64,000 nt of DNA from a virus (IMGVR_UViG_3300029566_000004); one strand, 5' to 3'. Counted from the stretch's first letter, positions 7,500 through 64,000 are shown. Notes: generated by a model from the sequence alone, not told the origin. Translations and numbers: made by a program.

Positions 7500-7514
7500 A
7501 AGGGGTGAAATAAG

Positions 7515-10699: not shown

Positions 10700-10715
10700 T
10701 AGGAGGAAATATTAC

Positions 10716-12522: not shown

Positions 12523-12912
12523 ATGTCCAAGCTAGTTACCGCGCCTAATGATGTAAATAAAGAATTATCATAGGCGAACCAGGATATGATTAGCGTTATC
12601 AAGGGCAGCGATACCGAATGGGTCGTTGTTGGTAGCTTAGAAGAATTAAAGAGTTTTGATTCTACAAATCCTGCGCAAGGTAATGGTAAGTGGGTTGGTA
12701 TTGATATCGACACTGGCTTAGATACTATTGTTGGCGCAACTTGGAATGGTTATTCATTAACTTAGGATGATGTTAATGAAGCCGCTTCCGTTGGTTTAGG
12801 TGCTGGCCATATTATCTTCTGGGCTAAGGCTGAAGCTTTACCAAGAACTATTACTATTGGCGCTCCTGAGAAGGAAAATATTAGTGTAACAGTTTCATTT
12901 AGAGACCGCTAA
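12523..12912 (+). CDS. Hypothetical head-associated protein (129 aa)
   Basis: The ATG at 12523 is 12 nt after the capsid stop. Two in-frame TAGs, TAA at 12910, followed by a strong terminator. Confidence 0.5.
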
Positions 12913-18010: not shown

Positions 18011-19103
18011 CGAAATTTGCGATGTTGTCTTAAAGGCTAAGGCAACTCAGAAAGTCGGTAATAAGGTTTTCTACAAGAATGAACCTGTTATTTATTTTGA
18101 CACTTTAAAGACCTCCAGCCTGGAAGGTGCGGCAACCACTGTTTATGCACAGGGTGGTCGTGGTAATAGCCGTCTTGTAGCTTGGGAAGGTGAGCGTACT
18201 GTTACCTTCACAATGGAAGATGCTCTTATTTCTCCTGCTGGTTTCATGATTCTTTCTGGCGCTGGTCTGATTGAAGGAACAGAAGCTGATCCTATTCCTG
18301 TTCATACGATTGAGACAACCGATCAGTTCAAGTACACAGATGACAATACTGCGGTTGAAATTTATGTTAAGGAAAAGCCATATGTTGCTACAGTGACTAC
18401 TGGTGAAAACGATGGCGCTGTAACTACTGCTGTTGGTAAGGAAGATTTCGTCTATGTTATGACCATGGTTAATGGTGAAATTGTTAGTGAGCCATTTGTG
18501 CCAGCTCGTAGTTGGATACCTGCGGCAACCGCAGAAACAACTGGTGCATATAAAGGCTTATGGAAGATTACTATTCCTGTTAATGGCGTTACTGAAGCTA
18601 CCGATAATGGTGTAACTACACCTCCTCAGGGCCTTGATACACTGAACAGCGATAAGCCAAAGAATCAGCTTGGTTACTTTGATGGCATCGACGCTGTTAT
18701 TGTTGACTATTATACTGCTAAAGGTAAGGGTGCAATGCAGATTGATATTACTCCCGATAAGTTCGGTGGTAACTATTATCTTGAAGCTTCCACATTGTTC
18801 CGTAATACTGATGGTGTTGATCTTCCCGCGGAATTTATTATTCCTAACTGCAAGATTCAATCTAACTTTACTTTCACTATGGCTTCTTCTGGCGATCCAA
18901 GTACCTTTACATTTACAATTGATGCTTTCCCTGACTATACTCGTTTCAACAAGACTAAGAAAGTTCTTGCGGCAATTCAGATTATTGATGTTGCTTCTGG
19001 TGCAGGTCTTGAGAATCGTGTACGTCCTACTCCCGATGAGCTTGCAGCTAATTCTGAGCCTTATCGTGAGAAGACTAATACTGGTTGGCAGCCAATTGAA
19101 TAA
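18011..19103 (+). CDS. Major tail (tube) protein, exon 2 (368 aa in total)
   Basis: The frame is open from 18009 to the TAA at 19101 with no TAG and highly-expressed-type codon usage. It sits upstream of the chaperone and tape-measure genes. Confidence 0.65.
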
Positions 19104-40039: not shown

Positions 40040-43000
40040 ATGTTATATGATGCAAATTTTTTACAAAAACTAGATACACATCACGAACATACATATTACG
40101 TCCGAATACAAGCATTAACCTTTGATGAACGTCCACTAGAGCAGTTAGAAGGACGTATTACTTCTGGATCAATTAATCTTGATGGCAAGAGCGCAATTCG
40201 GCGCTCTTGCTCATTAAGCTTTATTGCTGAAGCAACTGAGATTAATGATTATTATTGGACATTTAAATAGAAATTTAAAGTTGAAATTGGTTTAGAAAAT
40301 AAAGTTGATGATTCATACCCATCTCGAATTTATTTTAATATGGGAACTTTTTTTATTACTAGTTTCAGTTCAACTTTTACTACTAATTCTGCCTCAATTA
40401 GTATCCAAGGAAAAGATAAAATGTGTTTATTGAATGGAGAATTGGGCGGCATTATTAATGCTGAAACAGATTTTGGTACTTATGACTATACTGATGCAAA
40501 TGGTGTTACAACGAATTATAAATTAACTATTCAAGAAATTGTTACAGATTTAATTTATAGTTATGCTCAAGAGCCATTATCTAATATCATTATATAGGAT
40601 TTAGATGATGTTGGTTTAGAATAGTTAGATTATAAGAACGACGATCCAATGTTTTTAATTCGCTCTTTTACAAGTGAGCGTTATGTGCTACCTTTGTTTA
40701 GTAGCGCTGATGTGACAGTTTATTGCTGTAAGGAAATCGGAAAAGACCAATATAAGTTTTCAGTATAGAAATTGAATAATGATAAAGTAATTATTTATGA
40801 TAGCCTAACTCGACCACTATTAGATAATAATTACATTGCTACACGATTTACATTTGAAGAAATGGATGAAACATAGACATATACGGCTGAATAGTTAAAT
40901 CAAATGCAATTATATTGCGCAGCTAAAATTACTTATGGTGAAGCAGTTGGCTACCGGGTTTGTCCATTGGTCTATGCGGGAGATTTAATTGCTAAAGCTG
41001 GCGATACAATTACTTCTGTGTTAGATAAAATTATAAAAATGTTAGGTGAATTTGAATATTTTTATGATGTTGATGGACGTTTTGTATTACGTCATAAAAA
41101 ATCATTTATCAATACTGTTTGGTTGCCAGAAATGGTAACAATTAGTTCGGATGAGGGAAGAGATCGTTATTGGCTAGATTATCAATATGCAACACCATAC
41201 ATATATGAATTTAAAGATACTAAATTAATTACTAATGTACAAAATTCTCCATAGTTAGCTTCAATTAAAAATGATTATACGGTTTGGGGGGAGCGCGTTT
41301 CTGCGGCCGGTGGTAAAGTACCTATTCATAGTAGATATGCTATTGACACTAAGCCAATTATATATGTCAGTGTTGCTCCTGATGCCGAACCAAATGTCTG
41401 GACTACTTTATCAGAAGCTGAATTTAAACACTATCAACTTAATATGCCATGGCTTAAGTAGCGTTTATTGTCGCGCATCTAGCTACATGCGTCATTAGAT
41501 TGGCGTGAATTAATTTATCAAATGGCTAAGGAATATCGTCAATACAATCATAACCATAACAATTTAGAATTTGAAGACTATCAAATTACGCTGGCAAAAC
41601 GCAATGAACCTTATTATCCAAATGGTCATACTGGCTATGAGCAATATTATATTGATTTAGAAGGTTTTTGGCGTCAATTATATTGGCCTTATGATAATAC
41701 TGATGAAGATGTTTTAAATGAAATGAGCGTTTATAATAAAGTAGTAGATTATAGTGAAATAAATAGTTCTAATTTATCTTAGTATTATATTAATGGTGTA
41801 TACCGTCCTAATAGTGCTGGATTAAAAATCTATTCTGAATAGGGAACAACTGAATTAGAATTAAAAACTACAGAGCATCCATGTAAGTTATATGGCACAA
41901 CTGATAAATGGGTTATTTTAGATAGTACTCATTGGTATTATGTTGATGAAAATGGTAAAGGATTTAATATTCCTACTGAATTAGGAATCAGTGAAATTCC
42001 GCAAATTGGACAATTTACTACTAAATTAATGCATGGTTGGTATACGTATGATACTATTCGTAATTTTTTAGAAAAAAGTCCAAGTGCAGATACATTTGTA
42101 AAATTTATTTATACTACGGCATATGACATTTCAAGTTAGTTGTGGTATAAATATTCTGATATTTCGCAATCTTTTATACCTTATTTGGACCAATATGACT
42201 ATTGTCCTATTTTAGCCACAGAAAATTATCCTATTGAAGGAATGACTATTAAAGAATATTATGAAAGAACATTTGTGGATGGAGAAGCGATATATAATGC
42301 AATTTCTGAAAGCTATAAAGGTTCAAAATATATGTTATATATTTTAAATGATGTAGATACAAATATAAAAAATATTCTACAGTAGAAAGATATGTGGTTG
42401 TCATTAATATCATTAATTCTTGAACGCAATCAATTACTATATTCCTCTTGGAGTAATTGGCAGAAATGGCTCAATGACAATGATTTTATTGAATTATTAA
42501 CATCAATTACCAATAATGTTTTATAGCAAGACTCAATAGAGCGTCGTTGGTGGCAAAATGAAATAATGACTACAGCTGATGCTATAATAGCTTTGCGTAT
42601 TGCTTTAGAGATGGAAGCATCTTCTCCTGAGTTATTATTGAAATATGATTGGAATCATGATGGATAGATTACTCTTACAGATGCTTTATTGATTATGCGT
42701 TCAGTATATAATCTTGATATGATTAACATTTCTTTGCCCAGTAGTATTTCATTAATAGATTTAAAAAACTTTATACAAAATGTAACAAATAATTATGGTG
42801 AAATAGTAGATAATTTAAGTGATGAGTTAATTGCGCAATATGATTTAGATGATGATGGATAGATTAATGAAGTTGAAATTTTTCTATGGACTTATATTTA
42901 TAATTCTTTGGTGTTAGCTGATAACTCAGAATTATCAAAATTAAACCCATTGGCACATTTTATTGTATCAAACATAATAGCTTGTCCTAGTGCAATTTAT

Positions 43001-49962: not shown

Positions 49963-49970
49963 ATAAAAAA

Positions 49971-49998
49971 AGGGACGTAGATAAAAATCTACGTCCCT
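49971..49998. terminator. Bidirectional rho-independent terminator where the plus and minus gene arrays converge
   Basis: AGGGACGTAGAT-aaaa-ATCTACGTCCCT (12-bp stem) is flanked by an A-run on the left and a T-run on the right, so each strand sees hairpin plus U-run. Confidence 0.8.
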
Positions 49999-50010
49999 TA
50001 TTTTATTTAC

Positions 50011-50406
50011 TTATTTATTCTCACGTACTTTAGCTTCAATTAAAACTTTAATATAGCTTTCTAAGTCGCCATATACTTCGTTTAAATATGTTTTAGCTTC
50101 GTCAGTCAAATTATTAAGTACTGCTGTATACGCCATGGTAAAAGCTTCTTTCTATGCTTCTGCTGTAAAGGCATTTTTACCCTTGAGCGCATCAACATAT
50201 GTCTAGTTTACAGCAATAACTGCATTGGTTACCGTGTCGGTAAGCATTGCAATATATTTCTTTGATAGCTCATTATCAGCATTTGCTGCAAGTGTTGCTG
50301 ATTTAGTTCTAATCCATTGAATTATAAATGGGACTAAAACACCTAACAAAGGAATAATACACATTTCAAAAATCTTACCCAAAAGTTCAACTATTTCTGT
50401 TGGCAT
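50011..50406 (-). CDS. Holin, LL-H-like family (131 aa)
   Basis: A GAGGTGA RBS precedes the ATG at 50406. One N-terminal transmembrane segment (IFEMCIIPLLGVLVPFIIQWI). In-frame TAGs at 50203-50205 and 50152-50154. AVN-[TAG]-TYVDALKGK matches the A-x-E-Q-T region typical of this family. TAA at 50011-50013. Confidence 0.65.
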
Positions 50407-50421
50407 ATATATCACCTCAAC

Positions 50422-50913
50422 TTATTTTAAATTTGCTCGATACTTAACTTCTACTAAATTATAAAGATCGTCGCCATCATGATTTCCGTGTAATGCATTA
50501 TAAATTCGATGCTCGTTTGTAATGTGTTCAAATTCTTTTAGTGTAATTTCATGATCATTCTCTAATAAAGCACGACATTCTTCTTTAAATTGACGTCCTT
50601 GAATAGATAATATACCTTCTGTTAAAGTTGTTAAATTATTTTGATTATTTATAATCTAAGCATGAATTGCTTTATTTTCAGCGGCAACTTTATTTTCATC
50701 CTCTTGGATTATTTTTAGTATAGAACGCTAATAATCATCTAAAATTGTCTTTATATTTTCAGCAATTTCTTTATTCATTTGCTCTTGACGGTCTTCAGTC
50801 CTTTTTTTACGTTGTTTATACATAAGTGTTACACCAGTGACAATACCACTTGCAATTAAACCAAATACGAACTCAAGCCAATATTTGATGATAAATTCCC
50901 AGATAGCATTCAC
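50422..50913 (-). CDS. Membrane-anchored protein next to the holin (163 aa); possible lysis accessory
   Basis: A GGAGGA RBS precedes the GTG at 50913. N-terminal transmembrane segment. TAGs at 50728-50730 and 50656-50658. TAA at 50422-50424. Confidence 0.5.
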
Positions 50914-51007
50914 TTAGATAATCCTCCTTTCTATATAATGATATTTTTTATCTGTCAATTATTATGAAAATTATTTTAATAAAATAAAAGAATGTTGGCC
51001 TTGAAGG

Positions 51008-51481
51008 TTAAGACCAATCAAAGCCAACATTGTTCTTTACATATGCAGCACCTATACAGATAGCGTCACTTTCATCTTCAGATACTTTTTTATTATAGTG
51101 ATTTAAGACATATTGCTATGCGTTTTTTTTCTATATTCCACGCTCTTTTCCTTTAATGCCAAGTACTGAACGCCAATGCGCGCAAGTATAAATTATATAA
51201 TTTTTACCGAATAGTTCAACAGCTAATTCTTCTAATACTCCAAGAACTTTGCCTAAAATTTTATAAGTTTGTGGATCTTGCTATAACTATATATCTTCTA
51301 ATATCATAAATTCTATTTGATACTATTGGCATAACTATTGTACTGACTATCGTAAAATCTAAAGACGCGTACCCAAATGCTCATTAGTCAATTTAATAGT
51401 ACCACTTGCAATTAATTTATCTCCATCAAAAATACTATATCCTGTTACATGACTTGCCTAATCGAGTGCAAGGATTCTCAA
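51008..51481 (-). CDS. ruvC: RuvC-like Holliday junction resolvase (157 aa)
   Basis: The translation gives RILALD-Q-ASHVTGYSIFDG...ILEDI-Q-L-Q-QD...SEDESDAICIGAAY, which fits the RuvC fold with acidic catalytic residues. Nine in-frame TAGs. The start is probably the TTG at 51481, overlapping the dUTPase stop. Confidence 0.7.
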
Positions 51482-52020
51482 TGACTAGACCCAAAGCCCC
51501 CGATACGCTCCTTCTCGGCAACGTCATCTTCGGTCTTTATATATTTTTTAATTATTCCTTGCCCAATATAATCACCCTTTTGGATGATAATAGGAATTGG
51601 CGAGAAATTAATTAATTGGAAAAAAATTTCCCCCTCATTATCAGGATTGTTATAATAGTCAGCATCCACAATGCCGACTGCATTAGCCATTACAAGCCAA
51701 TGTTTATGAGGGAGAGAGCTACGAGCCATGATTTCAAGATATTCATCATCAGCTAACTTCACTTTCATTCCAGTAGACACTAATACAGGACGAGCATCTG
51801 CGGATTTTGTTAAGGTAGCCATTTGTGCCATGGTTAATTCAGGAGCGGCGATAGGGTTGCGATCCCATTCATGTTTCATGTCATATACCAAGCGTTCATA
51901 TGGAGGGATAATTTTCTCTTCTGCTGCTTGAAAATCATAACCGGCCGAACATTTAGTTGCCCGCGCGGGTAAAATCAAATTAGCATTATCAAAACGACTT
52001 ACAACTTCAAATTTTGCCAT
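51478..52020 (-). CDS. dut: dUTPase (180 aa)
   Basis: An AGGAGAG RBS precedes the ATG at 52020. dUTPase motifs are present (SAGYDF, GIVDADY, RIGGFGSS). No TAG. TGA stop. Confidence 0.8.
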   Translation of the reverse strand: MAKFEVVSRFDNANLILPARATKCSAGYDFQAAEEKIIPPYERLVYDMKHEWDRNPIAAPELTMAQMATLTKSADARPVLVSTGMKVKLADDEYLEIMARSSLPHKHWLVMANAVGIVDADYYNNPDNEGEIFFQLINFSPIPIIIQKGDYIGQGIIKKYIKTEDDVAEKERIGGFGSSH

Positions 52021-52039
52021 AATATACTCTCCTAAATTA

Positions 52040-52297
52040 TCAAAAGTTGGGTTCATTACCATAAGAATAAGAAATAGTTGTAATACCATCAGGTTCTTTT
52101 TCATCATTGAATAAACGATTAAGTGTAACACGATACCAAGTATCAATTATTTCTCCTTTAGCTTTGCGTTCACGATATTCACAATTGTACTTAATAAGGT
52201 CACCTTTTCCATCTGCTTTTGCGGCCTCTATTAATTGTTTGGCAGCGTCTTCGTTAGGAACTCGATATATTTCTTGCGTTTTTAATAAATAATTCAT
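52040..52297 (-). CDS. Hypothetical protein (85 aa)
   Basis: Intact ORF with an AAGGAG RBS and no TAG. Confidence 0.55.
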   Translation of the reverse strand: MNYLLKTQEIYRVPNEDAAKQLIEAAKADGKGDLIKYNCEYRERKAKGEIIDTWYRVTLNRLFNDEKEPDGITTISYSYGNEPNF

Positions 52298-52306
52298 ATT
52301 AACTCC

Positions 52307-52570
52307 TTAAATAATTTCAATGTGCAGAGGAGGATGCCCTGCATAATATTCTTTACTGATGGCGAGTGCGTCACCAGCAATTTTGCTTGCTAACTCTCGA
52401 GGAGCAGCAACTACGATTGTATCACAATGATAAGTATAATAGAAAGCACAAAGTATTGTGCCGAGATCATATATCTTACTATATGCGATTAATGTTGGAT
52501 GCTCATTATTATCAACTAAATAAATAGCCTACATATTAGAACCAATTTGTACTTCAGTTGTTATTTTCAT
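52307..52570 (-). CDS. Hypothetical protein (87 aa)
   Basis: The ATG at 52570 overlaps the upstream stop (TAATG). One TAG at 52529-52531. TAA at 52307-52309. Confidence 0.45.
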
Positions 52571-53094
52571 TATGCCACCCCATTTATAATACCTTGTTTG
52601 TAATCAAAGAAAACATAGCAATAAGTACCTTCATCATTTGTAATCCAGATTTCAGCCGTCCAAGTATCTTCATTTACAGTAATATCTTTAATTTCACCTA
52701 GATTTTCAATAACTTCCATAAAGATATCACTTAATTCTTCATTACTATAATCATCATGATGGAAAATAGTAATGTAACGACGTTCCCAGCATATAAGAGC
52801 CCAATAATTTTGTTCAGGCATACCCGGATCCATAGTTGCGCCAAACATACGATAAATATCTGTCTGTGCCTTGCGCAACTGTTCATCTGTCATTGGTTTT
52901 AATTGTGCAAAAATACTAGAATTTAAATCTGCTAAAGTAATTGTGAACTCACCGCCATCCAATTTTACTGGTTCCCAACTACCATTTTTACATTGATACA
53001 TTTTCTTATCTTCTTCCACAAGCGCATATTCATTTTCCATGTTCTCACGATATGGAAGAGCATCTAATATTTTTTTTGTTTTAATATTTAACAT
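52570..53094 (-). CDS. Hypothetical protein (174 aa)
   Basis: Intact ORF with an AAGGGAG RBS and no TAG. Confidence 0.6.
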   Translation of the reverse strand: MLNIKTKKILDALPYRENMENEYALVEEDKKMYQCKNGSWEPVKLDGGEFTITLADLNSSIFAQLKPMTDEQLRKAQTDIYRMFGATMDPGMPEQNYWALICWERRYITIFHHDDYSNEELSDIFMEVIENLGEIKDITVNEDTWTAEIWITNDEGTYCYVFFDYKQGIINGVA

Positions 53095-53142
53095 ATATTT
53101 ACTCCCTTACTATTCTATATATATTATACCATAAAATATTTT

Positions 53143-53604
53143 TCATTTCTACTCGTCATATACTTTAGCAGTGTTAATTAATATACGTTTTAATTGTGGA
53201 TCCATACTAAATCTATTAGCATTTTTTTCAATACTTTTTAATAGGTTACCATCTAACTGACGCTCGGAAGCAGCCTTCCAGTCGCAAAACATTTCAACAA
53301 TATCAATTAAATTCATATCATCAATACTATTATCAAAATGCTCTGGATGATGCCTATATTGAGCATAATGGTGTTGAAGCGCACCATTCATTTTTTCTAA
53401 GCATTCGCGATACTCCGGACTATCATAAGTTAATTCGGAAAGCTTAGGCGTATATTCTGTAAAGACTTCAAGCTCAGGGTTTTCGAGTTTAGCTCTATCA
53501 TGTTCAAGTCCACGAGCATATAGCTTATTAATAAATAGCTATATATACTCGCGCACTTTTTCAATATGTTTATAGGTTTCAACTTTACATTCAGCTTGTG
53601 TCAT
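53143..53604 (-). CDS. Conserved phage protein (153 aa), resembles the DUF5662 family
   Basis: The ATG at 53604 lies 1 nt after the nrdJ stop. One internal TAG at 53539-53541. The C-terminus reads ...VYDE-TAG-AAA-TGA, with the real stop at TGA 53143-53145. Confidence 0.5.
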
Positions 53605-53605
53605 A

Positions 53606-54816
53606 TTAACCACACTTACTATATCCACAGTCAATACATGTTACACAACCCATTTCATGTTTTAGATCTGCACCGCATTGAGGACATTTTTCTTCTAATA
53701 GAGTTTGAGTCTTTACTTTATGTTCATTATTAAATTTTTCCCACATTTCCATTAACGCATTTCCGATGGCGACAGGGCAGCATGAACCCGGAGATACGTC
53801 ATTCTTTGTAGCGCGGCGCACCGCATAACTAGGACAGGTTCCACTGCTCTTAAGCTGATCAACAATTTCTTCAATAGGAGTACCATTGCGCGCAGCCAGA
53901 CTAATCATACGCGAAAGTCCAATCATAAAGTTGTTGCATCCACCGGTACTTCCTTTGCTTAAATAAGTATTACGCAAATTGCCATCTTTATCAAAGAAAG
54001 CAGTTATATGTAGTGAACCACATCCAGTAGTTAAATGATGTTCCATACCTAAGCAATCAGAAGTGCCTTTCTTCGAAACTATCTTTTTAATCTTAGGTTC
54101 TTCGACCGCAGTTTCAGATTTCTTTTCTCCTGAAGTAGCGTTAAGAATAGCCGTGCGCGCACATCCAGCACGAAAGACTGTAATACCCTTTAAGCCATGC
54201 GACCATGCATTCATATAAATGTCGCGTACGTCATCAACCGTTGCTTCATTGGGAAGATTAACCGTTGATGAAATACTTGCATCTATGTGTGCCTGCCAGG
54301 TGCTTTGCATCTTGATACGATTAATGGGTTCAAGTTCAGCAGAAGTAATAAACCATTCAGGTAAGTCCGCATCATCTTTAATGCCATGGGCATCCATGTA
54401 TTCTTTAACTATTGGAGTATATACTTTGTAGGTTACGTCCTTACCATGTAAAGACTTCGTAGTACGAGTATAATAATTAGCAAAAATGGGTTCAATGCCT
54501 CCTGAAATGCCCAGCATGGTGGACAACGTGCCTGTAGGCGCAATGGTTAATAATTGACTATTATATAGACCAGCGCTTTTAAATCCGTTAATTGCTAATC
54601 CATTTGGATTGTAGTGTCGCTGAATAAAAGATGAATTTATTACTTCGGGAATATATTTAGGATATGGCGTGCCATGTTCAGCTGCCAATTTGCTGCTTGT
54701 TGCAATAGCGGTACGCGCCAATAAAGTACCAATTTCATCACTAATTGTAAGGGCTGCTTTGGAACCATAAGTAATTTGCATTTTAATCAATGCATCAGCA
54801 AGACCCATGATACCTA
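53606..54816 (-). CDS. nrdJ: Class II (B12-dependent) ribonucleotide reductase, exon 3
   Basis: Begins ..G(L)GIMGLADAL and contains TIAPTGT. Ends in a Cys-rich zinc-finger tail (CPQCG...CVTCIDCGYSKCG). No TAG. TAA at 53606. Confidence 0.8.
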
Positions 54817-55752
54817 CATTAAATCTAATTATTTCTAATTAGAATGGACTATCTCTTCAATATTTATTATTGTTTTGCACTTCGAATAGTAACTCATCTT
54901 CTATTCTACTGGGCTACACTCATCACCCATAGTCTCTACACCTTTTTTAAATATATTTCCATTTATAACCAAAAGCTTTTTTGCTATCTTTGCATCTTTT
55001 ACAAATATCTGAACTAGGAGTTTGACTAACTGTTAAATGCTATTTTATACACCAATCACCAGCTTCTTTTAAACTGTTGAAAATTTTAATTATTTTATAA
55101 TCGTCTGTACACATAGCTACTTTTTTACTATTTTTTTCCCTTATTTTATTTTTAGTTTCTTCTGTGTGGTGATGATTATAAAAAGGATTTTTTTCTCCTG
55201 TTCTTAATGATGCAATTTTTGATATTTTTTCTTTTGTTTTTTCATTATGCCTATGACCATAAAAAGGATTATTTTCTCCATAAAGTTTTTCTCCCCCATC
55301 GGTCATATTATATCCATTTGGCATTTTTGAATTAAAATATTTTATATAATACTATTCTAATTCTAATAATTTTTCTTTATCATCTTCATATACAACAACT
55401 TCATATTTAAAATTTTCCCAACCATATTTTTTAATTGCTCGCCCTAATAAAGTATTATGATTTATATCATCATTTTTATGTCGGCGCATTCTTTCTTTTA
55501 AAGTAGCTGTAGTATATCCGATGTACAGTTTATTATTTATTATATTGGTTATTTTATAGATACATCCCATATTATCACTTCCTTTGAAATATAGGAAATA
55601 TATTTAAAACTTGGCACGGTATTATCATATCCTTTTTATAGGACTTAGACTCCCTTACCCATAATATAATTACTTATTTCTGGACCGTTAGCCGAATAAT
55701 CGACACCCCTGAGTAATAGGGTTCACAAAATTTTAATTGACCTAGATTTTTA
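54817..55752 (-). mobile_element. Group I intron 2 in nrdJ (936 nt) carrying a GIY-YIG endonuclease
   Basis: Minus-strand elements GTAGAGACTATG (54939..54928) and AAGAGATAGTCC (54857..54846), then a TAATTA-gaaa-TAATTA hairpin. The 5' exon ends in U (55753) and the intron ends in G (54817). Splicing restores ...RQIGLGIMGLADAL. Confidence 0.75.
54947..55570 (-). CDS. GIY-YIG homing endonuclease (207 aa), intron-encoded
   Basis: The motif GCIYKITN...KLYIGYT is present. TAGs at 55352-55354 and 55040-55042 are in frame. Reading through them gives LELE-Q-YYIKYF..GYN..GG and a C-terminal ...KAFGYKWKYI tail. TAA at 54947. Confidence 0.75.
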
Positions 55753-56305
55753 AGCCAATTTGACGCCAATCGCGCACACTATCTCTTTGCTCTTGCAGAG
55801 GATGACGATACAGTCCCTCATCTAAAACATCGTTAAGTGCACGCACTGCAACATCAACTGCCCGTTCAAATTCTTTCCATTGAAATTCTCCATTTACAAC
55901 AAACGCAGCCAAATTTAATGAACCAAGTAAACAACTGCCGCCAGCGGGCAGTGGCTCTTCGGCGCAGGGATTAGTTCCAGCATATTCAAAATCCGGATGA
56001 GTATTTAGCATATTTTCTTGTTCAATTCTATCCCAAAACAAAATACCTGGCTCTGCATAATTCCAATTTTGTTCACAAAGCAAATTAAATAAATCTTTTG
56101 CTTTTACGGTTTTACTAATTACTTCACCTGTTTCAGGTCGAGTAAAACTTAATTCCCAATCGTTATCATGTTGTACAGCGGTCATAAAGTCATCAGTTAC
56201 GCGTACAGAAATGTTAGCATAATTAACTTTATTTAAGTCACTTTTGATTGTGATAAACTTTTCAATATCGGGATGGTCGCATCGCATGGAAATCATTAAA
56301 GCCCC
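55753..56305 (-). CDS. nrdJ: Class II ribonucleotide reductase, exon 2
   Basis: Contains GALMISMRCDHPDIEKF and the active-site TNPCAEEPL. No TAG. Confidence 0.8.
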
Positions 56306-57286
56306 CATAGTGGACTATATCTTATTTATTATATAATAATAAACTCGGGCGCTAATACGGTCTTATTGTTTCCTCAACCGTTAGTCTCTACACCTTCTAC
56401 TGCTTTTTCTTCAGTAGCTTGGCTCGGGGTTGTTGGGCCTTCCCCGAATTCACCCAATTCAAGACGCAGGGCTTGTGCTTTATCGTATTTTCTTTTTAGA
56501 ATAATAAAACTATCGTTTGGATAAATAAAATTTAAAAACTTTAATACATCTTCTCTATTGGCGAATTCTAATACGAAACAATTTTCATTAGACTTTGGTC
56601 TAATAATTGTTGAAATTGCGCATTGTTTTAATAAAATTTGTTGGATTCCTTCAAGTATTTTTAACGAAGAAGTAAAAGAGATTTTTTGCCATAATCTATT
56701 TCGGTCTTTTCTTCTACCCCATGTTAAACATCCGTCTCCATCAAAAAATCCTTGTACCAAATATTTTTCTAAATTTTTAGGAATAATGGGACAATGTTTA
56801 TTTTCTTTTGAAGAACAATGCTTATTAAAATCAGTAATTAAATCTAAATTACCAATAGTAATTCTAGCGCGAGGAAAACGTTTGGTTTTTGGAATATAGG
56901 TTAAATCTTCTGTATAATTTGCTCCAATGTATTCTGCAATAAATTGTAATATCTTTTTATCTTCTAAACAACACCCAAATTCAACTACATTATCATTGAT
57001 GTATCCATCTGCTAAAGCATAGCCAATAATATAAGCTTTTTCTGGAGTATCAATTTTATTAAACATTTTTGGGTTTTTATATTTAGGTTTTTTATATTTA
57101 GACTTGTCATTTAACCCATATTTAGTAATCCAATATTCAATAGTTGATTTTGCTTTTCCAACAATCTTTGCAATTTCTTGTTGTGTTAATCCTTTTTCTA
57201 AATATTTTTCTAATAGTTTTCTATTCACAGAAAGAGCCTCCTACTCTATATATTTTCGGAAACTTACAATTTAATTAAGCAAGTTT
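56306..57286 (-). mobile_element. Group I intron 1 in nrdJ (981 nt) carrying a LAGLIDADG endonuclease
   Basis: Minus-strand elements GTAGAGACTAAC (56391..56380) and AAGATATAGTCC (56323..56312). The 5' exon ends ...CGT (57287) and the intron ends in G (56306). Splicing restores ...GQNGRR|GALM. Confidence 0.75.
56374..57228 (-). CDS. LAGLIDADG homing endonuclease (284 aa), intron-encoded
   Basis: Two LAGLIDADG-type motifs (YALADGYIND and GFFDGDGC) plus an N-terminal HTH. No TAG. The TGA stop lies just 3' of the intron R element, so the ORF end overlaps it. Confidence 0.8.
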   Translation of the reverse strand: MNRKLLEKYLEKGLTQQEIAKIVGKAKSTIEYWITKYGLNDKSKYKKPKYKNPKMFNKIDTPEKAYIIGYALADGYINDNVVEFGCCLEDKKILQFIAEYIGANYTEDLTYIPKTKRFPRARITIGNLDLITDFNKHCSSKENKHCPIIPKNLEKYLVQGFFDGDGCLTWGRRKDRNRLWQKISFTSSLKILEGIQQILLKQCAISTIIRPKSNENCFVLEFANREDVLKFLNFIYPNDSFIILKRKYDKAQALRLELGEFGEGPTTPSQATEEKAVEGVETNG

Positions 57287-57736
57287 ACGTCTGCCATTTT
57301 GTCCAATTTGTTCGGTCACTTGTGAGAAAGTGTCCATGAAAGAAACAGCGCCACTTGTTGTTTTGGCTTGATTATGAACTCTTGCACCTGCTGGAGCCAA
57401 TTTACTAATATCAATGCCGCATCCTCCACCATATGAATAAGTACGTGCCAACTTTTTACAAGTTTCATAAATACTTTCAATGGAGTCCTCTGGAGGACTA
57501 ATAACATAACAATTACTATATGTTACTCGCTCTATCTGCTCACTTACATTTCGGTTAGAAAGAATACGACCACCAAATAAAAATTTCTTATCAATAATTA
57601 ATTGTTTTACTTCTTCATGACCATTACTAATACGGTCTAACCATTGGTCAAAACTTTCATCACCACGACGATATTTTTTCTCCCATATATCAATACCGAG
57701 AGTATTATTTTCGCCTAACCAATCTTGTATTGTCAT
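57287..57736 (-). CDS. nrdJ: Class II ribonucleotide reductase, exon 1
   Basis: An AAAGGAG RBS precedes the ATG at 57736. The motif YSYGGGCGIDISKLAPAGARV is present. The three exons total 2214 nt, 738 codons including the stop. Confidence 0.8.
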
Positions 57737-57805
57737 AAGTTACTCCTTTATCTAAATGTAGTATGGTGTGGGGATACACCTACTATATATGGATTTTATA
57801 ATAAT

Positions 57806-58387
57806 TTATTTAATGTAATTTACCCAATCATCTATGTATCCTTTAAGTACTTCAGCTTCTTCTTCAGTAGTTAAAGAACCATCAGTTCGCATAATGATTG
57901 TATTCTCTCTATTTGAAATATCGAATTCAGAGAAATCAAATCGGTCAGTATTATACCGCCTTAATACTTCTTCCACATCTGGAGTATTCTCTCGTGAAAG
58001 CTGGCGTATGAGCCGTATATGGTCTGGGCAATCGCACATAATTAATAAGACATTTAAAAAGTCATGACTATCAAGAGCTTCCACCCCAGCAGGATTGAAG
58101 ACTCCAAAGTTTAATTTATCTTCGGCTAAATCAAGAACACTTGTGCCATATACCCAGCCATTAAATTCAGCTGCTTCAAGCATCTTACCTTCTTCAATTA
58201 GTTGAATAAATTCATCTCTGGTTATAAAATGATAATCTTTACCATCTACTTCATAATCTCTTGGTGGACGCGTAGTATAACTTACTTTTATGTGCGCTTC
58301 TGGATATATTTTTGCAAGGGCTTGGAGCAGCGCATCTTTGCCTGCTCCAGCCTTACCACATATCGCAACTATATTATACTTCTTCAT
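57806..58387 (-). CDS. gmk: Guanylate kinase-like nucleotide kinase (193 aa)
   Basis: P-loop GKAGAGKD plus the TTRPPRDYEVDGKDYHFI motif. Overlaps the polymerase 3' end by 14 nt. No TAG. Confidence 0.7.
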   Translation of the reverse strand: MKKYNIVAICGKAGAGKDALLQALAKIYPEAHIKVSYTTRPPRDYEVDGKDYHFITRDEFIQLIEEGKMLEAAEFNGWVYGTSVLDLAEDKLNFGVFNPAGVEALDSHDFLNVLLIMCDCPDHIRLIRQLSRENTPDVEEVLRRYNTDRFDFSEFDISNRENTIIMRTDGSLTTEEEAEVLKGYIDDWVNYIK

Positions 58388-61300
58388 CTTCCTCAGTTGT
58401 GCCTCCTTGATAACGAGTATCTTGTAAGATTAAATCTCCATTGCTTTTTACTTCGTTAATTTTATATAATTGATGTCCTACTGTGCTTGCATATTTCTTA
58501 CAAATGAAATTATCCCCTGAACGCATTCCATTTACAATTATCATATTACCACGCTTAAACCAAGAACGCTCAACTATATGTTTCTTGCCATCCGCTCCAC
58601 GTTCAGAAATCTGTCTATCAAATAATGCGAAATATTCTTTTCTAAACTTTACTTCAACAACGCCATCGGGAGTCAGCAAGGTTACTGTACTTTTTGTTTT
58701 ATTTCTATCAATACAAGTTCCTGCAATTTTCGTTAACTTAAAAAGTGGAATAGTTTTATTGCCACGATACCAATACTTATCAGCTTCTGGCTCTTCTGGT
58801 AAATCAAAGAAATCACTTAAACCATATTTTTCATTATTGATATTTAATAACTCGTGGTCATGATAATAAATACATGCAGCTTCCATTTCCCAATGTGAAA
58901 TTGTTCCGGACGCATATTTATCCCATTCTTCTTTGAACAAAATTGTATTTAACTTGAATAATAAATCTGATTTATTTTGCATCATCCAATGTCTAAATAT
59001 ATCCATTTCGCTTTGATATATCTTATCCCACTGTTTTGCATTCATTAAATCTCCATCAATTAATCTTTCCCAACCTTGACTAATTAAAAAATCAATTGCG
59101 CGCACGTCTAACCGATAATTTATATCTGATGCTTTCTCACGACATACTGCTTTGAGATAACGATTAAATTCATAAATGCGCAGACCGCGTTCCATCTTTT
59201 CATCATCTAATGGAACCAAATTGTATTTTAGTAATGTAGGGAAACTTGTTAAGTTCAAATTTGTCTTTGGCTCACAAGTTGTCCATAAATACCATGCCAT
59301 TGTAAACTTGCGGTCTTCTATACTATCAAAAGCTCCTGCTTTGATAAGTGAAATCATTGCTTGTTTTTTTGGATGTGCTCTATTTACAAAATCTTTTGGT
59401 GATGTATATGGACGATTCTCAATTATAACTTTGATAAAATCATCACCAACATTTACCAAATTCTTAAATCCCATTAAGATACAATTATTTTTTACATCAG
59501 GCGTAAAGCCATATTTTGAGGTATTAATATCAACTAACTTAACATCAATATCAGATGTTGTCAATTCACCAATAGCTTTTGCAATTTTACCATAATTAGT
59601 ACTTGCGCCACCGTCTTCATCAGTTGCACCGCTATTTACAATTAAACAAGCTGTATCCCAATATATTGAATTCCAATGAGTGGAAAGATAAATCATCTGT
59701 ACTCCAACAAATGAATACGGTAATGAATGATTTTTACTAAATGCATATCCAAGACTTGGTGCAATCGCTGTAAACCAAATATAATCTGCATAATGTGCGT
59801 CGCCCACATGCTCATATAATTGTTTACGCAAATCGGGAATTTTTTTCATTTGTTTCTTTGCAACAATTTTACGAGCTGCGTTTGCTTCTCCCAAAGTAAA
59901 CTTTGCAATATCTTCATCCATTAAAATTTCCATCATTTGCTCTTGAAGAGGAACTGTGCCATAATACGCATCACAATACTTATGAAACGCCGCACGCTGC
60001 TTATCATTTAATCCTCGAGTTAACATTTCCTCTTCAAACTCATTAGGATGTTCTTTTATACGAACATATCTATCCTGCTGTGGCTCTTTGCCTTTCTCAG
60101 ACATAAGACGCATCAACGCCGATGCCGCAGTCATCTCTAACATATTTTGCGGTTTGAGCTTTTTTGCTATCATCAAACCAACACCTGTTGCGAACTGGAA
60201 TACGTCGAGAATATCTCCCGCCGCAAGGTGATCCCAAAGTTCTTGATTAGTTACATCTATAACTTCTGGATGGAGATATTGATTATAAAATGTTCTCAAA
60301 TCAATATCTTCTATTTGTTTATCTTCCTTTAACATCTCATAACATTTGATAATTTTATCAGATGCTTCTGTTACAAGGAAGTCATACTTTGTATCACCAG
60401 CGGCTTCTGCCTCATGCAAATCCCAACAAGTTACTAAATCCCAACCAGGAGAACGCATAAATGATGCGGTTTCAAATGGGTTATCACCATACAAAATTAC
60501 ACCACTTGCATGTACTCCACGCTTATTGACAAGACCGCAAATATAAACTATGATATCTAATAAGCCAGGATATTTATTTACTTCCTCTAAGAAAGATGTA
60601 ACAGGTTTCCTATCTCTTTCTTCATTTCCATATATAACATCATTAATCTCCCATAAGAAACCACGCTCTTGTGGAATGAGAGAAGACATATATTGCGCTA
60701 TATCTACATCAATTCCATCGGGATATTCTTCACTTCTATATCCACGACAAGCAGTTTGGATTGCAGATTTAGTTGCTTCTGTACCAAATGTGACAACCTG
60801 CACAACACCAAATTCTCCGCGTTCTTCTCTTATCTTTTCAAAAATCAAAGGACGCTTACTTGGCGCAAGGTCAATATCAATATCAGGTAATTCCGCACGT
60901 TCTTTATTTAAAAACCTCCAGTATGGCAAGTCCCAACGAATCGGGTCAAGCTGGGTGATACCCAATAGATAATTAGATAAAAAACCTGTTGCTGAACCAC
61001 GACCGGGACCTACGATGCTACCGCACTCCCAAAATAAATTAATATAATGTTGGAATGTATTAAAATATGCAAATAGACAATCGTCTAACTTTTTTCCGAT
61101 ATCTTGAATAATATCAGCTTCAACGCAAATGCGGTCAATATAATTCCATTCCCACAAACCTTTTTCTATTAATCCTTCAAGACATTGATTAATCCAATAT
61201 CTCTCTTGAGGATTATCTGATGTTCCTAAATCTTGAATGATTTTCCATCGGCCCTTTAATTCATCGGCATAATCATTATTAACACCAAAATAATGATGAT

Positions 61301-62261
61301 ACTCACTTTTATCGTATTCTTTAACTTGAATCTTTGGAATAATCTGTTTGCGCTCAAGGCTAAACCATTGAATTTTTTTTTGCAGCTCTTGACTATTTTC
61401 AAACATCCAATCAATTACTGCCTCATCTTCAATGCTCTTTAACATTAATTCTTTGACTTCATCGGGAGACATTACATATGTATACTGATAGAACTTATCA
61501 GTTTCACGGTCGCCATCTTTAGAAGTCAAATACGCACGATGAATTGGTCTATCTTCTGGACGCAGATAATGAGCATCAGTACCAATAACCATAGGGATGC
61601 CCAATGCTTTACTTATCTTATATAAAGTTTGATTAACTAATATCTGTTCTTCATCTGTGCTTGGAGCGCACTCAATATAAAAATCAGAACCAAAAATATC
61701 TAAACAATAATTTAAGAAATTATTGATATTGTCATAATAAATCTTGGCGTTTTGATTATCTCCAACTGCTCTTGCCTTTGCCATCAATAAAGCATTAGAT
61801 GATAACTCACCACCAATACAAGCACTTGTTGCAATTACATGTCCAGGATTTTCTTTAATAATTCTCTTTAAATCTTCCTTTAAAGTTGGAACACGTTCCA
61901 GACGACCATATTCATATATGTTTGTCCATGCAAGTGAACTTAATTTTTTAAGTTGTGTATAACCGTCATTATCCTTTGCAATTAATATAAAGTGATAATA
62001 CTTTTGCTTCGGTTCTCTGGTCTCTGTAAGATAAATTTCATTACCTAACGCAATCGTAAAATCTGGGTCGGTTTCGCGCATCGCTTTCGCTAATTTATTA
62101 ACTGTCATATGCGCACAAAGAGCTTCGTGGTCCGTTATTGCCAAACCACTTAGCCCTAATTCTTTCGATGTTTTAATTAATGCTTCAGGTCGATTAATAC
62201 TATCAAGTAAGCGAAGATTTGAATACATTGTATGCGCATGGCAATTAAAGTATGTGTTCAT
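58374..62261 (-). CDS. dnaE: DNA polymerase III alpha-type replicase (DnaE-like, N-terminal PHP domain; 1295 aa)
   Basis: A single intact ORF with a GGGAGGAAG RBS. PHP motif (HAHTMYS...ITDHE). No TAG in 1295 codons. Confidence 0.8.
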   Translation of the reverse strand: MNTYFNCHAHTMYSNLRLLDSINRPEALIKTSKELGLSGLAITDHEALCAHMTVNKLAKAMRETDPDFTIALGNEIYLTETREPKQKYYHFILIAKDNDGYTQLKKLSSLAWTNIYEYGRLERVPTLKEDLKRIIKENPGHVIATSACIGGELSSNALLMAKARAVGDNQNAKIYYDNINNFLNYCLDIFGSDFYIECAPSTDEEQILVNQTLYKISKALGIPMVIGTDAHYLRPEDRPIHRAYLTSKDGDRETDKFYQYTYVMSPDEVKELMLKSIEDEAVIDWMFENSQELQKKIQWFSLERKQIIPKIQVKEYDKSEYHHYFGVNNDYADELKGRWKIIQDLGTSDNPQERYWINQCLEGLIEKGLWEWNYIDRICVEADIIQDIGKKLDDCLFAYFNTFQHYINLFWECGSIVGPGRGSATGFLSNYLLGITQLDPIRWDLPYWRFLNKERAELPDIDIDLAPSKRPLIFEKIREERGEFGVVQVVTFGTEATKSAIQTACRGYRSEEYPDGIDVDIAQYMSSLIPQERGFLWEINDVIYGNEERDRKPVTSFLEEVNKYPGLLDIIVYICGLVNKRGVHASGVILYGDNPFETASFMRSPGWDLVTCWDLHEAEAAGDTKYDFLVTEASDKIIKCYEMLKEDKQIEDIDLRTFYNQYLHPEVIDVTNQELWDHLAAGDILDVFQFATGVGLMIAKKLKPQNMLEMTAASALMRLMSEKGKEPQQDRYVRIKEHPNEFEEEMLTRGLNDKQRAAFHKYCDAYYGTVPLQEQMMEILMDEDIAKFTLGEANAARKIVAKKQMKKIPDLRKQLYEHVGDAHYADYIWFTAIAPSLGYAFSKNHSLPYSFVGVQMIYLSTHWNSIYWDTACLIVNSGATDEDGGASTNYGKIAKAIGELTTSDIDVKLVDINTSKYGFTPDVKNNCILMGFKNLVNVGDDFIKVIIENRPYTSPKDFVNRAHPKKQAMISLIKAGAFDSIEDRKFTMAWYLWTTCEPKTNLNLTSFPTLLKYNLVPLDDEKMERGLRIYEFNRYLKAVCREKASDINYRLDVRAIDFLISQGWERLIDGDLMNAKQWDKIYQSEMDIFRHWMMQNKSDLLFKLNTILFKEEWDKYASGTISHWEMEAACIYYHDHELLNINNEKYGLSDFFDLPEEPEADKYWYRGNKTIPLFKLTKIAGTCIDRNKTKSTVTLLTPDGVVEVKFRKEYFALFDRQISERGADGKKHIVERSWFKRGNMIIVNGMRSGDNFICKKYASTVGHQLYKINEVKSNGDLILQDTRYQGGTTEEDEEV

Positions 62262-62296
62262 TTCTTCCTCCCTTCATAATTTTATAATATTCTTAC

Positions 62297-62325
62297 TTTA
62301 TAAGTATACCATATATTTTTATCAA
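62297..62325 (-). promoter_or_regulatory. Possible promoter upstream of the polymerase gene
   Basis: On the minus strand, TTGATA (62325..62320), a 17-nt spacer, then TATAAA (62302..62297). Confidence 0.3.
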
Positions 62326-62327
62326 AA

Positions 62328-63520
62328 TCAATCATGCTTTACAATAACCAATTTATCAACGGCACGGGTAGCCGCAGTATAAAGCCAGCGCGCATGTTCA
62401 GTTTTATTAAATGGAAACTTTTCTTCCAGAACTAATACTTTATCCCACTCGCTACCTTGCGCTTTATGGCAAGTGATTGCATATCCATATGAAAACTCTT
62501 TTGGTAATAAATCTCCATAACGATTTTTTGCACGATTAAGCTTATATGCTAAACGCCAATCGCAACATTTTTCACCAGTTAAAAGCATAATGCGATCACC
62601 CATAACCGCAGGATAAATACTTCCATTAGCAACAAAATCAAAATTCAGAACATCAAATTTTTGTATAGGTTCGTTATAAATTAATTGACGGGGTAACTTT
62701 AACCATTCTTGGCTACTATTAGTTAATGTGCCGATTGTTCCATTTACTAATGCGTCACCATCATAGTTAATACTTTCCCAATAATTACGCAAACAAATAA
62801 CTTTATCTCCATCTTCTGGGTTAATACCTTTGCCCAGAAGTGCGCGAATATTATTATTCTGCGCAAGGCGTTGCATATTTGTACCAACGATAACTTGGTC
62901 ACCCCATAACAGCATCCCAGTATTTAAACTATGATTAGGCAATATCATTACATCATTACCTTTCCAATCATCCAATGTTGCGTTTTCACGAATTTTCATT
63001 GTAAGCTGAATGATTTCTGAGTCCATGGCCTGACGCACGATTTCATCAAGGAAAACATGCGGATGGTCAAGTAAATGATTATCTTCATCTGTATCTATTG
63101 GTGGCAGCTGAAATGGGTCGCCTAAACATATTACATAAACTTTATGCTTAAATAGCTGGTCCATAAGACTCTTTGGCACCATACTGACCTCATCAACTAC
63201 AACAATAGTAAAGCCAAGGGCGGGCTTAGGCTTATGCATAAAACCACCGGCAGGGCGAGGCACACTATCAAATAAAAGTCGATGCATTGTCATAGCATTA
63301 GGATTACCCTTTTTGCGCAAAACCTCGGCGGCTTTGCCAGTGAAACTGGCATACGCAATTTGTTCCGGAGCGACATCAAGAGCTTCAACTATAAATCGCA
63401 CAAGAGTTGATTTACCTGTTCCAGTTAAGCGTAGCCAGCAATTACGGTGTATTTTTCACCAGCGCGATGCCGAGCTACTGCTATTTTCAGTCCTTCTTCT
63501 TGACCTTTAGTCAAAATCAT
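62328..63520 (-). CDS. Dda/RecD-like SF1B DNA helicase; reading frame broken at the Walker A motif
   Basis: A GGAGGAAG RBS precedes the ATG at 63520. The first 31 codons read MILTKGQEEGLKIAVARHRAGEKYTVIAGYA, then TAA at 63427..63425. The rest (GTGKSTLVRFIVEAL..., 357-aa track ORF) is in the -1 frame. No TAG. Confidence 0.65.
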
Positions 63521-63571
63521 GACTTACTTCCTCCATTTCTTGAAGTTTTAAATTTTTTATTTTCTATAATC

Positions 63572-63600
63572 ATTATATCATAATTTATAAAATTTTTCAA
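63572..63600 (-). promoter_or_regulatory. Sigma-70/SigA-type promoter for the helicase-polymerase array
   Basis: On the minus strand, TTGAAA (63600..63595), a 17-nt spacer, then TATAAT (63577..63572), about 50 nt upstream of the helicase ATG. Confidence 0.6.
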
Positions 63601-63643
63601 CAATTGCTCGCAAAATTTCCAAAAGCATTTTTTAATTAGGTTT

Positions 63644-63676
63644 TCGGGTCTCGCATCCACTACCGGGCGGAGACCC
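63644..63676. other. GC-rich hairpin between the partial upstream gene and the helicase promoter
   Basis: CGGGTCTC and GAGACCCG form an 8-bp stem with a 17-nt loop. There is no downstream U-run on the minus strand. Confidence 0.4.
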
Positions 63677-63689
63677 GAACGGATACATT

Positions 63690-64000
63690 TTAGAAGTAAT
63701 AAGGCCAATTTCGTGTCACATAATAATCCTTAATTTCTACTTGTGGTTTTTCATATCCACCATAGTTATTAATTTTACATTCACCAATAATAGTAAGTTC
63801 ATGACCACCCATTGTGTCATGTAAATTTTCATATTCCTCGTCAGACACTTTAAATTTAATAAAACTTAAATCACCAAAACTAATATGAAGTGTATTTGCT
63901 TTATATAAATTTACATTATCCGCAGTTACATTAACATTTGTAATAGCGACTAGTGGTTCAGCTACGCCTTGGCCCCAATAATCATACAACGCACCAATGT
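63690..64000 (-). CDS. 3' end of a gene that continues beyond the window; possibly an OB-fold-like C-terminus
   Basis: The frame is open from the window edge to the TAA at 63690-63692. No start is visible inside the window, and the track's start is an internal TTG. Confidence 0.45.
   Translation of the reverse strand, partial: IGALYDYWGQGVAEPLVAITNVNVTADNVNLYKANTLHISFGDLSFIKFKVSDEEYENLHDTMGGHELTIIGECKINNYGGYEKPQVEIKDYYVTRNWPYYF

Follow-up and report, generated by a model that had tools for sequence, protein, structure and literature searches.

Here we examine a viral DNA stretch of 64,000 nucleotides (nt), IMGVR_UViG_3300029566_000004 (hereafter the window), in which the genes of one leftward array (50011–63520) differ sharply in their use of the codon TAG. 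The window is part of a human-gut phage of about 151 kb that has an SPbeta-like replication module and uses genetic code 15, with TAG read as glutamine. TAG never serves as a stop codon, the core genes of replication and nucleotide metabolism lack it, and the suppressor tRNA is borne by the phage itself. The best explanation for this pattern, and one that we regard as probable, is a timed code switch that combines TAG-free early genes with the phage suppressor tRNA.

With TAG counted as sense, open reading frames (ORFs) of 100 codons or more cover 72.0 kb in place of 40.7 kb, and the longest ORF grows to 10.1 kb from 3.9 kb; this reading also gives full-length conserved phage proteins (Pfam and PHROGs) that in-frame TAGs otherwise interrupt. 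The stop codons of the window's genes are TAA (36) and TGA (11), and no gene is terminated by TAG—the lone apparent TAG stop is intron sequence 3' of exon 2 of nrdJ, the gene for a B12-dependent ribonucleotide reductase. In alignments of the RuvC-like resolvase, the membrane protein, the holin, and the helicase, columns that contain TAG hold glutamine at 24% against a background of 3.7% (6.5-fold), with no other residue prominent, and the two TAGs of the holin align with glutamine in 16 of 20 and 18 of 20 relatives. Judged by these alignments, TAG is decoded as glutamine, as in genetic code 15.

The original prediction, made from the DNA alone, had described a genetic-code mosaic in which TAG-free replication genes sit next to TAG-rich resolvase and lysis genes. 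Its counts were reproduced: no TAG in the DnaE-type polymerase, guanylate kinase, LAGLIDADG endonuclease, dUTPase, nrdJ exons, or the ORFs of 174 and 85 amino acids (aa); two in the 153 codons of the DUF5662 gene; one in the 87-aa ORF; nine in the 157 codons of RuvC; and two each in the membrane protein and the holin. Its gene list omitted a GIY-YIG/NUMOD3 endonuclease (54947–55570) with two TAGs, and its helicase of about 397 codons, correctly given as TAG-free, consists of two frames split by a 5-nt insert and not of one ORF.

Weighed against composition, the absence of TAG from the replication genes far exceeds chance. The ten TAG-free leftward genes and exons hold 3,309 codons, with 104 CAA or CAG codons and 110 off-frame TAGs, and no in-frame TAG; for DnaE, the figures are 42 off-frame TAGs against none in frame. 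Our baseline, the late-gene rate, was taken from the plus-strand late genes (247 TAG in 15,527 codons, 1.6%), where TAG makes up 33% of the sum of TAG, CAA, and CAG. At that rate the ten genes should contain 46–53 TAGs; the observed zero has P = 1.4e-23 (Poisson) or 4e-19 (share of glutamine codons). The result is not circular, because the limits of the TAG-free genes came from homology and not from the absence of TAG—DnaE, for example, matches YorL of SPbeta-like Bacillus phages across 99% of its length, at 38.9% identity.

The boundary is sharp where dUTPase and RuvC meet. As originally noted, the two genes overlap at 51478–51481, where in the four letters TTGA the TGA that ends dUTPase overlaps the TTG with which RuvC begins, and their TAG contents differ with a Fisher p of 9e-4. 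Orthologues were collected from the polymerase loci of 47 distinct diverged relatives, with DnaE 55–72% identical, and counted as TAG per 1000 codons: 0.18 for DnaE (TAG-free in 37 of the 47), 1.4 for dUTPase, 5.2 for both helicase and holin, 19.1 for the membrane protein, and 20.6 for RuvC. TAG density is higher in RuvC than in dUTPase in 19 of 22 genomes and the reverse holds in none (Wilcoxon p = 1.3e-4). As a share of glutamine-type codons, TAG amounts to 36–39% in RuvC (22 diverged genomes) and the membrane protein (14), and to 6% in dUTPase.

The suppressor had been predicted to lie outside the window, and there it was located. ARAGORN, with a positive control that worked, found no tRNA in the window, in the 8 kb rightward, in the 10 kb leftward, or around the polymerase of 60 relatives. 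A walk of about 50 kb along a near-identical contig, IMGVR_UViG_3300045988_166184 (135 kb; proteins 99–100% identical), in five protein-seeded scans, led to a 9-kb array in which 17 tRNA genes, including a tRNA-Gln(UUG) and one tRNA(CUA), are interspersed with GIY-YIG endonucleases. This tRNA(CUA) gene was called by ARAGORN at 22764–22852 of that contig (L307:10674–10762; Rfam tRNA, 58.5 bits) and is also present in two further near-identical genomes (three in all, 97–100% identical). The gene sits on the strand of the replication genes, about 46 kb past the window's right end and about 47.5 kb upstream of where DnaE starts. In more distant relatives this region, which lies upstream of an RNA ligase gene, likewise has tRNA arrays with a tRNA(CUA). 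The four genes directly downstream of the array are TAG-free, as is a sigma-70-family gene in the leftward arm; the homing-endonuclease and methyltransferase ORFs interleaved with the tRNAs have 1–5 TAGs.

The acceptor of the tRNA(CUA) reads U1:A72, G2:C71, G3:C70, and G73, which are the acceptor features by which tRNA-Gln is recognized under the identity rules. In other respects the molecule is unusual: it is 89 nt long with a long extra arm, atypical of tRNA-Gln, and its positions 2–18 (the 5' acceptor strand and the start of the D-arm) are identical to those of the phage's own tRNA-Trp(CCA). The 3' acceptor strand is likewise that of tRNA-Trp(CCA) save for position 72, yet U1:A72 and G73 are as in tRNA-Gln. 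In the closest non-identical relative (L228) the suppressor is also 89 nt long; those of other relatives measure 71–77 nt.

A switch of this kind would work as follows. On entry into a standard-code host, the genes that could be completed would be the TAG-free ones for replication, nucleotide metabolism, and the sigma-70-family factor, along with the tRNA array. Accumulation of the suppressor would then make TAG-bearing mRNAs translatable—those for virion proteins, RuvC, most homing endonucleases, and the holin cassette—and the host's release factor 1 (RF1) would probably be outcompeted or disabled as the suppressor built up. The tape measure gene, with its 69 TAGs, suggests that late decoding must be nearly complete and hence that RF1 is outcompeted or neutralised; by calculation, even 99% read-through per TAG would give only about half of the tape measure protein at full length. 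RuvC would be translationally coupled to the TAG-free dUTPase. Its start lies within the dUTPase stop codon, so that the two are probably on one transcript, and its nine TAGs would block RuvC at the level of translation.

Several observations count against so simple a scheme. The order of expression in time is purely something that we infer. No release factor or aminoacyl-tRNA synthetase gene (the original prediction had proposed to look for release-factor and GlnRS genes) was seen in the parts of the genome that were read, with about 28 kb unread (about 12 kb past the tRNA array and part of the small leftward genes). A genome scan for the host matched only phage-sized contigs binned in Clostridium and 'Mollicutes' metagenome-assembled genomes. 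In some relatives the helicase has up to eight TAGs and DnaE has one or two, so that the replication proteins of those phages need suppression. The mosaic itself, although its contrast of TAG-free and TAG-rich genes stands well beyond chance, is graded and gene-specific and does not fall into two clean code blocks: TAGs occur within the replication stretch, and some late genes are nearly free of them.

This gradation was followed over 73 kb of the near-identical contig, stitched from overlapping loci without conflicts. Three levels of TAG emerged: about 0.9% in the homing endonucleases of the leftward arm (21 TAGs over 2,365 codons, with TAG in 8 of the 11), 0.13% in its other genes (about 19 in 14,263 codons, with 40 of 49 genes TAG-free by automatic count), and the 1.6% of the late genes. 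The genes interrupted by TAG-bearing homing endonucleases are TAG-free, and the LAGLIDADG enzyme of nrdJ, with no TAG, is an exception among the endonucleases. An opposite-strand tail-fibre module embedded in the leftward arm has 14 TAGs in 2,718 codons. Within the arm, the genes for DUF5662, the 87-aa ORF, an RNase H-like protein, ThyX, and a YorF-like protein carry 1–3 TAGs each, which adds to the case against a strict division. So do four late genes of high guanine-plus-cytosine (GC) content, at 10623–11372, 11390–12511, 12523–12912, and 18213–19103 (0.40–0.42 against about 0.32), which are nearly TAG-free (3 TAG in 1,047 codons, 0–2 each) and prefer CAG to CAA, the opposite of the rest of the genome. 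These may be the most highly expressed virion genes; their near lack of TAG indicates that expression level or efficiency, and not timing alone, shapes TAG use.

The same observations bear on explanations that need no timer. Under non-adaptive drift, C-to-T changes would turn CAG into TAG and be fixed wherever tolerated, with genes expressed before the suppressor intolerant of them, and the pattern would be a by-product. A low GC content (about 33%) favours the step from CAG to TAG, TAG use is indeed graded by gene and not by block, the positions are only partly conserved (columns of the RuvC alignment mix TAG, Q, L, and E), and the replication genes that carry TAG differ among relatives. We consider this account possible though rather unlikely, since the stable preference for TAG in RuvC and the membrane protein relative to dUTPase argues for selection, and lysis genes have been preferentially recoded by convergence in two other clades (Borges et al., bioRxiv 10.1101/2021.08.26.457843). 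A related idea is that TAG, as a codon for which release factor competes, is avoided by genes whose products are needed in quantity or with high accuracy. The high-GC capsid-module genes at 10623–11372, 11390–12511, and 18213–19103, with 0–1 TAG and CAG instead, fit this idea; in the gut phage Phass-1, of four signature proteins analysed, those stated to have suppressor TAGs are TerL and the tape measure, and such codons are not stated for the capsid or for DNA polymerase III alpha (PMC10607447). As a general explanation it is nonetheless improbable: the tape measure with 69 TAGs and tail proteins with 19–22 show that long essential proteins do not avoid TAG, and DnaE, which is not expected to be highly expressed, is the strictest TAG-free gene across the family.

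The remaining alternatives we hold to be much weaker. Recent capture of the TAG-free replication block from a standard-code phage might be suspected from its resemblance to the replication module of standard-code SPbeta phages, and from genomes that are full of mobile introns and homing endonucleases; it is very improbable, as the same contrast in the 47 relatives, with DnaE merely 55–72% identical, makes the dUTPase/RuvC boundary old and maintained and disposes of a recent transfer. GC content and GC skew are also alike in TAG-free and TAG-rich genes of the minus strand, and genes of the two kinds physically overlap. Finally, the host itself could read TAG as sense, with no switch at all and the TAG-free genes a coincidence of composition. 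We give this explanation next to no credence, given zero TAGs where 46–53 are expected, a phage with its own tRNA(CUA), recoded phages of such kind that infect standard-code Firmicutes or Bacteroidetes, and phages of truly recoded hosts in which about 90% of genes are recoded (Borges et al.).

The timed switch may also have a more particular role. Tentatively, and with more doubt than conviction, we suggest that in this phage family it could, beyond timing lysis, act chiefly to keep DNA-cutting enzymes safely locked. The TAG-bearing genes of the 73-kb leftward arm are overwhelmingly nucleases—RuvC at the top density, the eight homing endonucleases, and the RNase H-like protein—and the genes that adjoin or enclose TAG-bearing nucleases are TAG-free. 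If this were true, nuclease genes would ride on early transcripts while remaining untranslatable until replication is finished.

The phenomenon of code timing is already published, and this phage is a further example of it. Borges et al. (bioRxiv 10.1101/2021.08.26.457843) described host-code-compatible early genes, followed by a suppressor tRNA, and then by recoded structural and lysis genes, in the clades Agate, Jade, Sapphire, Garnet, Amethyst, Topaz, Lak, and crAss-like; they also reported that an intron of an early gene encodes a recoded endonuclease, that introns split terminases, that low-GC relatives are depleted in TAG stops, and that Agate genomes measure 154 ± 27 kb. The original reading of a timed switch holds as regards TAG as glutamine, the depletion, its conservation, and a tRNA(CUA) off the window; what fell away is the clean two-code mosaic, and the idea itself is the model of Borges et al. 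The present phage shares with theirs a phage suppressor tRNA through which TAG is read as glutamine, structural and lysis genes that are recoded alongside replication genes that often are not, recoded intron endonucleases in early genes, a split terminase, a depleted TAG stop, and low GC; at about 151 kb it is also of Agate size, a likeness drawn by description only. It differs in that the most recoded gene of its leftward array is RuvC, not lysis genes alone, and in that no 'code-change module' (release factor or aminoacyl-tRNA synthetase) was seen beside the lysis cassette.

Code blocks have been described in crAss-like phages (Yutin et al. PMC7886860), Mgcod has been applied to multi-code phage genomes (bioRxiv 10.1101/2022.06.29.495998), and TAG as glutamine has been proven by metaproteomics (Peters et al. 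PMC9523058). Those phages resemble ours in having standard-code-readable and TAG-reassigned parts of the genome, recoded late genes, and abundant introns. The lineage is unrelated, however: our phage has a YorL-like DnaE polymerase and SPbeta-type Yor/Yon proteins, with no crAss-type genes, and its host is probably a Firmicute and not a Bacteroidete. Its likeness to SPbeta extends to the YorL-type DnaE, the YorF, YorH, YonD, and YonG families, and an intron-interrupted ribonucleotide reductase, but the relatedness is distant, and SPbeta has the standard code where this phage has code 15 and a large tRNA array. Integrase and arbitrium genes, at which no search was aimed, were not seen here.

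The closest described phage is Phass-1 (Babkin et al. 2023, PMC10607447; OQ749652), a human-gut phage of about 136 kb in which TAG encodes glutamine in 41 ORFs, mostly for virion proteins and some DNA enzymes. It has a DNA polymerase III alpha, three tRNA-Sup(CTA) genes, and many other tRNAs, with no dedicated synthetase (PMC10607447), and is listed by NCBI under the 'Caudoviricetes code 15 clade' (OQ749652). One of the high-GC capsid-module genes has a match in phrog_4088 and is 49% identical to a Phass-1 protein; Pfam gave no match for these genes, and labelling one of them the major capsid protein was rejected as unjustified on that ground. Megablast of 14 kb from the window gave no nucleotide match to Phass-1. 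Among GenBank phages, DnaE is closest to that of SPbeta phages, at about 39%, and Phass-1 is below this figure, which indicates a lineage distinct from Phass-1 at genus level; by sequence, our phage falls outside the proposed genus Phassvirus. The two also differ in their suppressor genes, three in Phass-1 and one found here, and in the dUTPase, which carries TAG in Phass-1 and none here.

The present analysis adds a well-resolved case: a distant relative of SPbeta with code 15, a gene-by-gene contrast that holds family-wide, and a located suppressor tRNA. The resolvase and homing endonucleases, and not lysis genes alone, are consistently recoded, and contigs of such phages must be annotated with code 15. 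The TAG pattern opens no new question by itself; the coding gap in the helicase might.

This gap, conserved and linked to an HNH ORF, is the most novel thing in the analysis. Within the Walker A motif (GYA/GTGKST) of the helicase sits the insert TAACT. Translation of the 5' part runs for 31 codons from 63520 (MILTKGQ...VIAGYA) to a TAA, and GTGKST... resumes in the -1 frame; both the stop and the frame change are due to the insert. All six near-identical assemblies have this insert, and so do many distant relatives; its variants are TGACT, TAACC, and, at 6 nt and in frame, TAAGCT and TAAGTT. Altogether 20 distinct sequences have an insert and 31 lack one, and the ORF downstream is open in every sequence. 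Synonymous sites upstream of the insert are frozen in insert-bearing helicase genes only.

In two relatives (L061/L065, about 7200–7960), an HNH-motif ORF lies directly upstream and the 5' end of the helicase is duplicated, with the original copy reduced to a truncated remnant; the arrangement looks like a mobile cassette. In the mobA/gene 60 cassette of phage T4, a homing endonuclease likewise travels together with a ribosomal bypass element. The insert is a candidate site for a short natural hop of the ribosome, or for a frameshift. If peptidyl-tRNA-Ala were to hop from GCT to the codon that precedes GGA (ACT, ACC, GCT, or GTT), GYAGTGKST would be regained whether the insert has 5 nt or 6 nt; a -1 shift would add a conserved Leu-Thr (GYALTGTGK), in the 5-nt forms only, and a +2 shift would yield GYATGTGK. 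Independent initiation of the helicase body was rejected, as in this phage the -1 frame has no start codon upstream of the P-loop. According to the review by Atkins et al., no natural 'stop-hop' is known.

Table 1. Features of the window by position, with in-frame TAG counts and the basis for each call.
Feature	Position	Strand	In-frame TAG	Basis or remark
Late (virion) block, TAG-rich	1569–49692	+	247 in 15,527 codons	
Terminator-like hairpin, bidirectional, 13-bp stem	49970–49999			Separates the convergent late and leftward arrays
Holin, 131 aa	50011–50406	-	2	phrog_13712 holin, E 1.6e-29
Membrane protein, 163 aa, N-terminal hydrophobic stretch	50422–50913	-	2	ORF calls
RuvC-like Holliday-junction resolvase, 157 aa	51008–51481	-	9	Pfam RuvC 1.2e-7, whole profile
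dUTPase, 180 aa	51478–52020	-	0	Pfam dUTPase 2.1e-12
85-aa ORF, no function assigned	52040–52297	-	0	Kept in relatives
87-aa ORF, no function assigned	52307–52570	-	1	ORF calls
174-aa ORF, no function assigned	52570–53094	-	0	ORF calls and relatives
DUF5662 protein, 153 aa	53143–53604	-	2	Pfam DUF5662 1.9e-35
nrdJ exon 3, 402 codons	53606–54814	-	0	Split-protein alignment
GIY-YIG/NUMOD3 homing endonuclease, 207 aa	54947–55570	-	2	Pfam GIY-YIG 3.5e-12, NUMOD3 2e-13
nrdJ exon 2, 185 codons	55751–56305	-	0	Split-protein alignment
LAGLIDADG homing endonuclease, 284 aa, first nrdJ intervening sequence	56374–57228	-	0	Pfam LAGLIDADG_3 1.8e-10
nrdJ exon 1, 150 codons	57287–57736	-	0	Split-protein alignment
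Guanylate kinase, 193 aa	57806–58387	-	0	Pfam Guanylate_kin on called gene
DnaE-type (SPbeta YorL-like) polymerase, 1295 aa	58374–62261	-	0	PHP, DNA_pol3_alpha, finger, and HHH_6 domains
SF1 helicase (AAA_30/UvrD_C_2), two reading frames	62328–63520	-	0	Family domains and frame analysis
5-nt insert TAACT in helicase Walker A motif	63423–63427	-		Between Ala and Gly codons

Several genes of the leftward array in Table 1 deserve comment. The nrdJ exons sum to 737 codons (150 + 185 + 402), as predicted, and the spliced protein aligns across both junctions with T. maritima 1xje (E 1.8e-69). The GIY-YIG/NUMOD3 endonuclease occupies the second nrdJ intervening sequence, between exons 2 and 3, and the two TAGs of the ORF around exon 2 are both in flanking intron sequence. 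At gathering threshold, Rfam found no group I intron and no other family in the window; the intron status of the interruptions in nrdJ and in the terminase gene described below rests on split-protein alignments for this reason. One of the TAGs of the DUF5662 gene stands just two codons ahead of its TGA stop, and the N-terminus of RuvC, MRILALDQ, aligns with position 1 of the Pfam profile. The membrane protein, for which neither Pfam nor PHROGs gave a family match, is a probable lysis-cassette partner of the holin. Upstream of this pair (50914–51007) a TTGACA box, a TATA-rich hexamer about 15–17 nt on, and a GGAGG ribosome-binding site can be seen by eye; a consensus promoter scan did not list the TTGACA/TATA pair. 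A weak terminator-like hairpin lies 3' of RuvC (51017–50995). DnaE, whole in the window, is fragmented by GIY-YIG endonuclease inserts in a 99%-identical genome (L047:10001–15019), and intron and endonuclease content thus differs between otherwise near-identical genomes.

Five ENA contigs from the human gut, each about 150 kb long (148–151 kb), carry the same DnaE without change, and the genes around it there belong to the SPbeta-type families YorF, YorH, YonD, and YonG. IMG/VR holds one polymerase gene that is 100% identical and more than 60 relatives at 55–72% identity, on contigs of 100–200 kb; megablast of window positions 50000–64000 gave no GenBank phage match.

The late block begins with a gene for a sigma-factor-like protein that has five TAGs, and contains an intron-split large terminase, a portal, capsid-module genes, a tape measure, and large tail proteins; portal (E 3.7e-75), tape measure (8.7e-55), and terminase were identified with PHROGs. 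The tape measure protein is 3372 aa long, and the tail proteins with 19–22 TAGs each have 1000–1500 aa. The region of 3963–4352, 4526–5233, and 5275–6753 holds the large terminase in two parts, with an insert that codes for an HNH-type homing endonuclease with seven TAGs. A second homing-endonuclease-like ORF, at 7143–7499, lies between terminase and portal, and the 93-aa ORF adjoining it (6847–7128) is not called as a gene in the ENA contigs.

To the left of the late block, a sequence of about 100 nt (tttacctttcgtacgttttacggccgccgcccgattcgg...) at 7–105 is found again at 653–751, upstream of small leftward ORFs; the 73-aa ORF at the start of the window is not a called gene. From 465–647 onward (into L002/L003), small leftward genes extend over at least 10 kb; there are about 20 of them, all short and each preceded by a spacer of its own, and these repeats and spacers are probably early promoters or leaders.

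The surroundings of the tRNA array offer a few further observations. With intron search, ARAGORN predicted in L304:17000–20528 a tRNA-Leu(UAA) with a 734-nt intron that codes for an HNH endonuclease (one TAG), and a tRNA-Met with a 135-nt intron. Next to the array, L307:2936–3043 gave a sub-threshold match to a Y RNA-like family (YrlA), at 44.9 bits against a gathering score of 69. Genes for a DUF2828/DUF7788 protein, an RNA ligase, and phosphoesterase/kinase functions lie nearby (27719–29245 and 41026–42456 of the 135-kb contig), and together with the YrlA-like match they may form an RNA-repair module.

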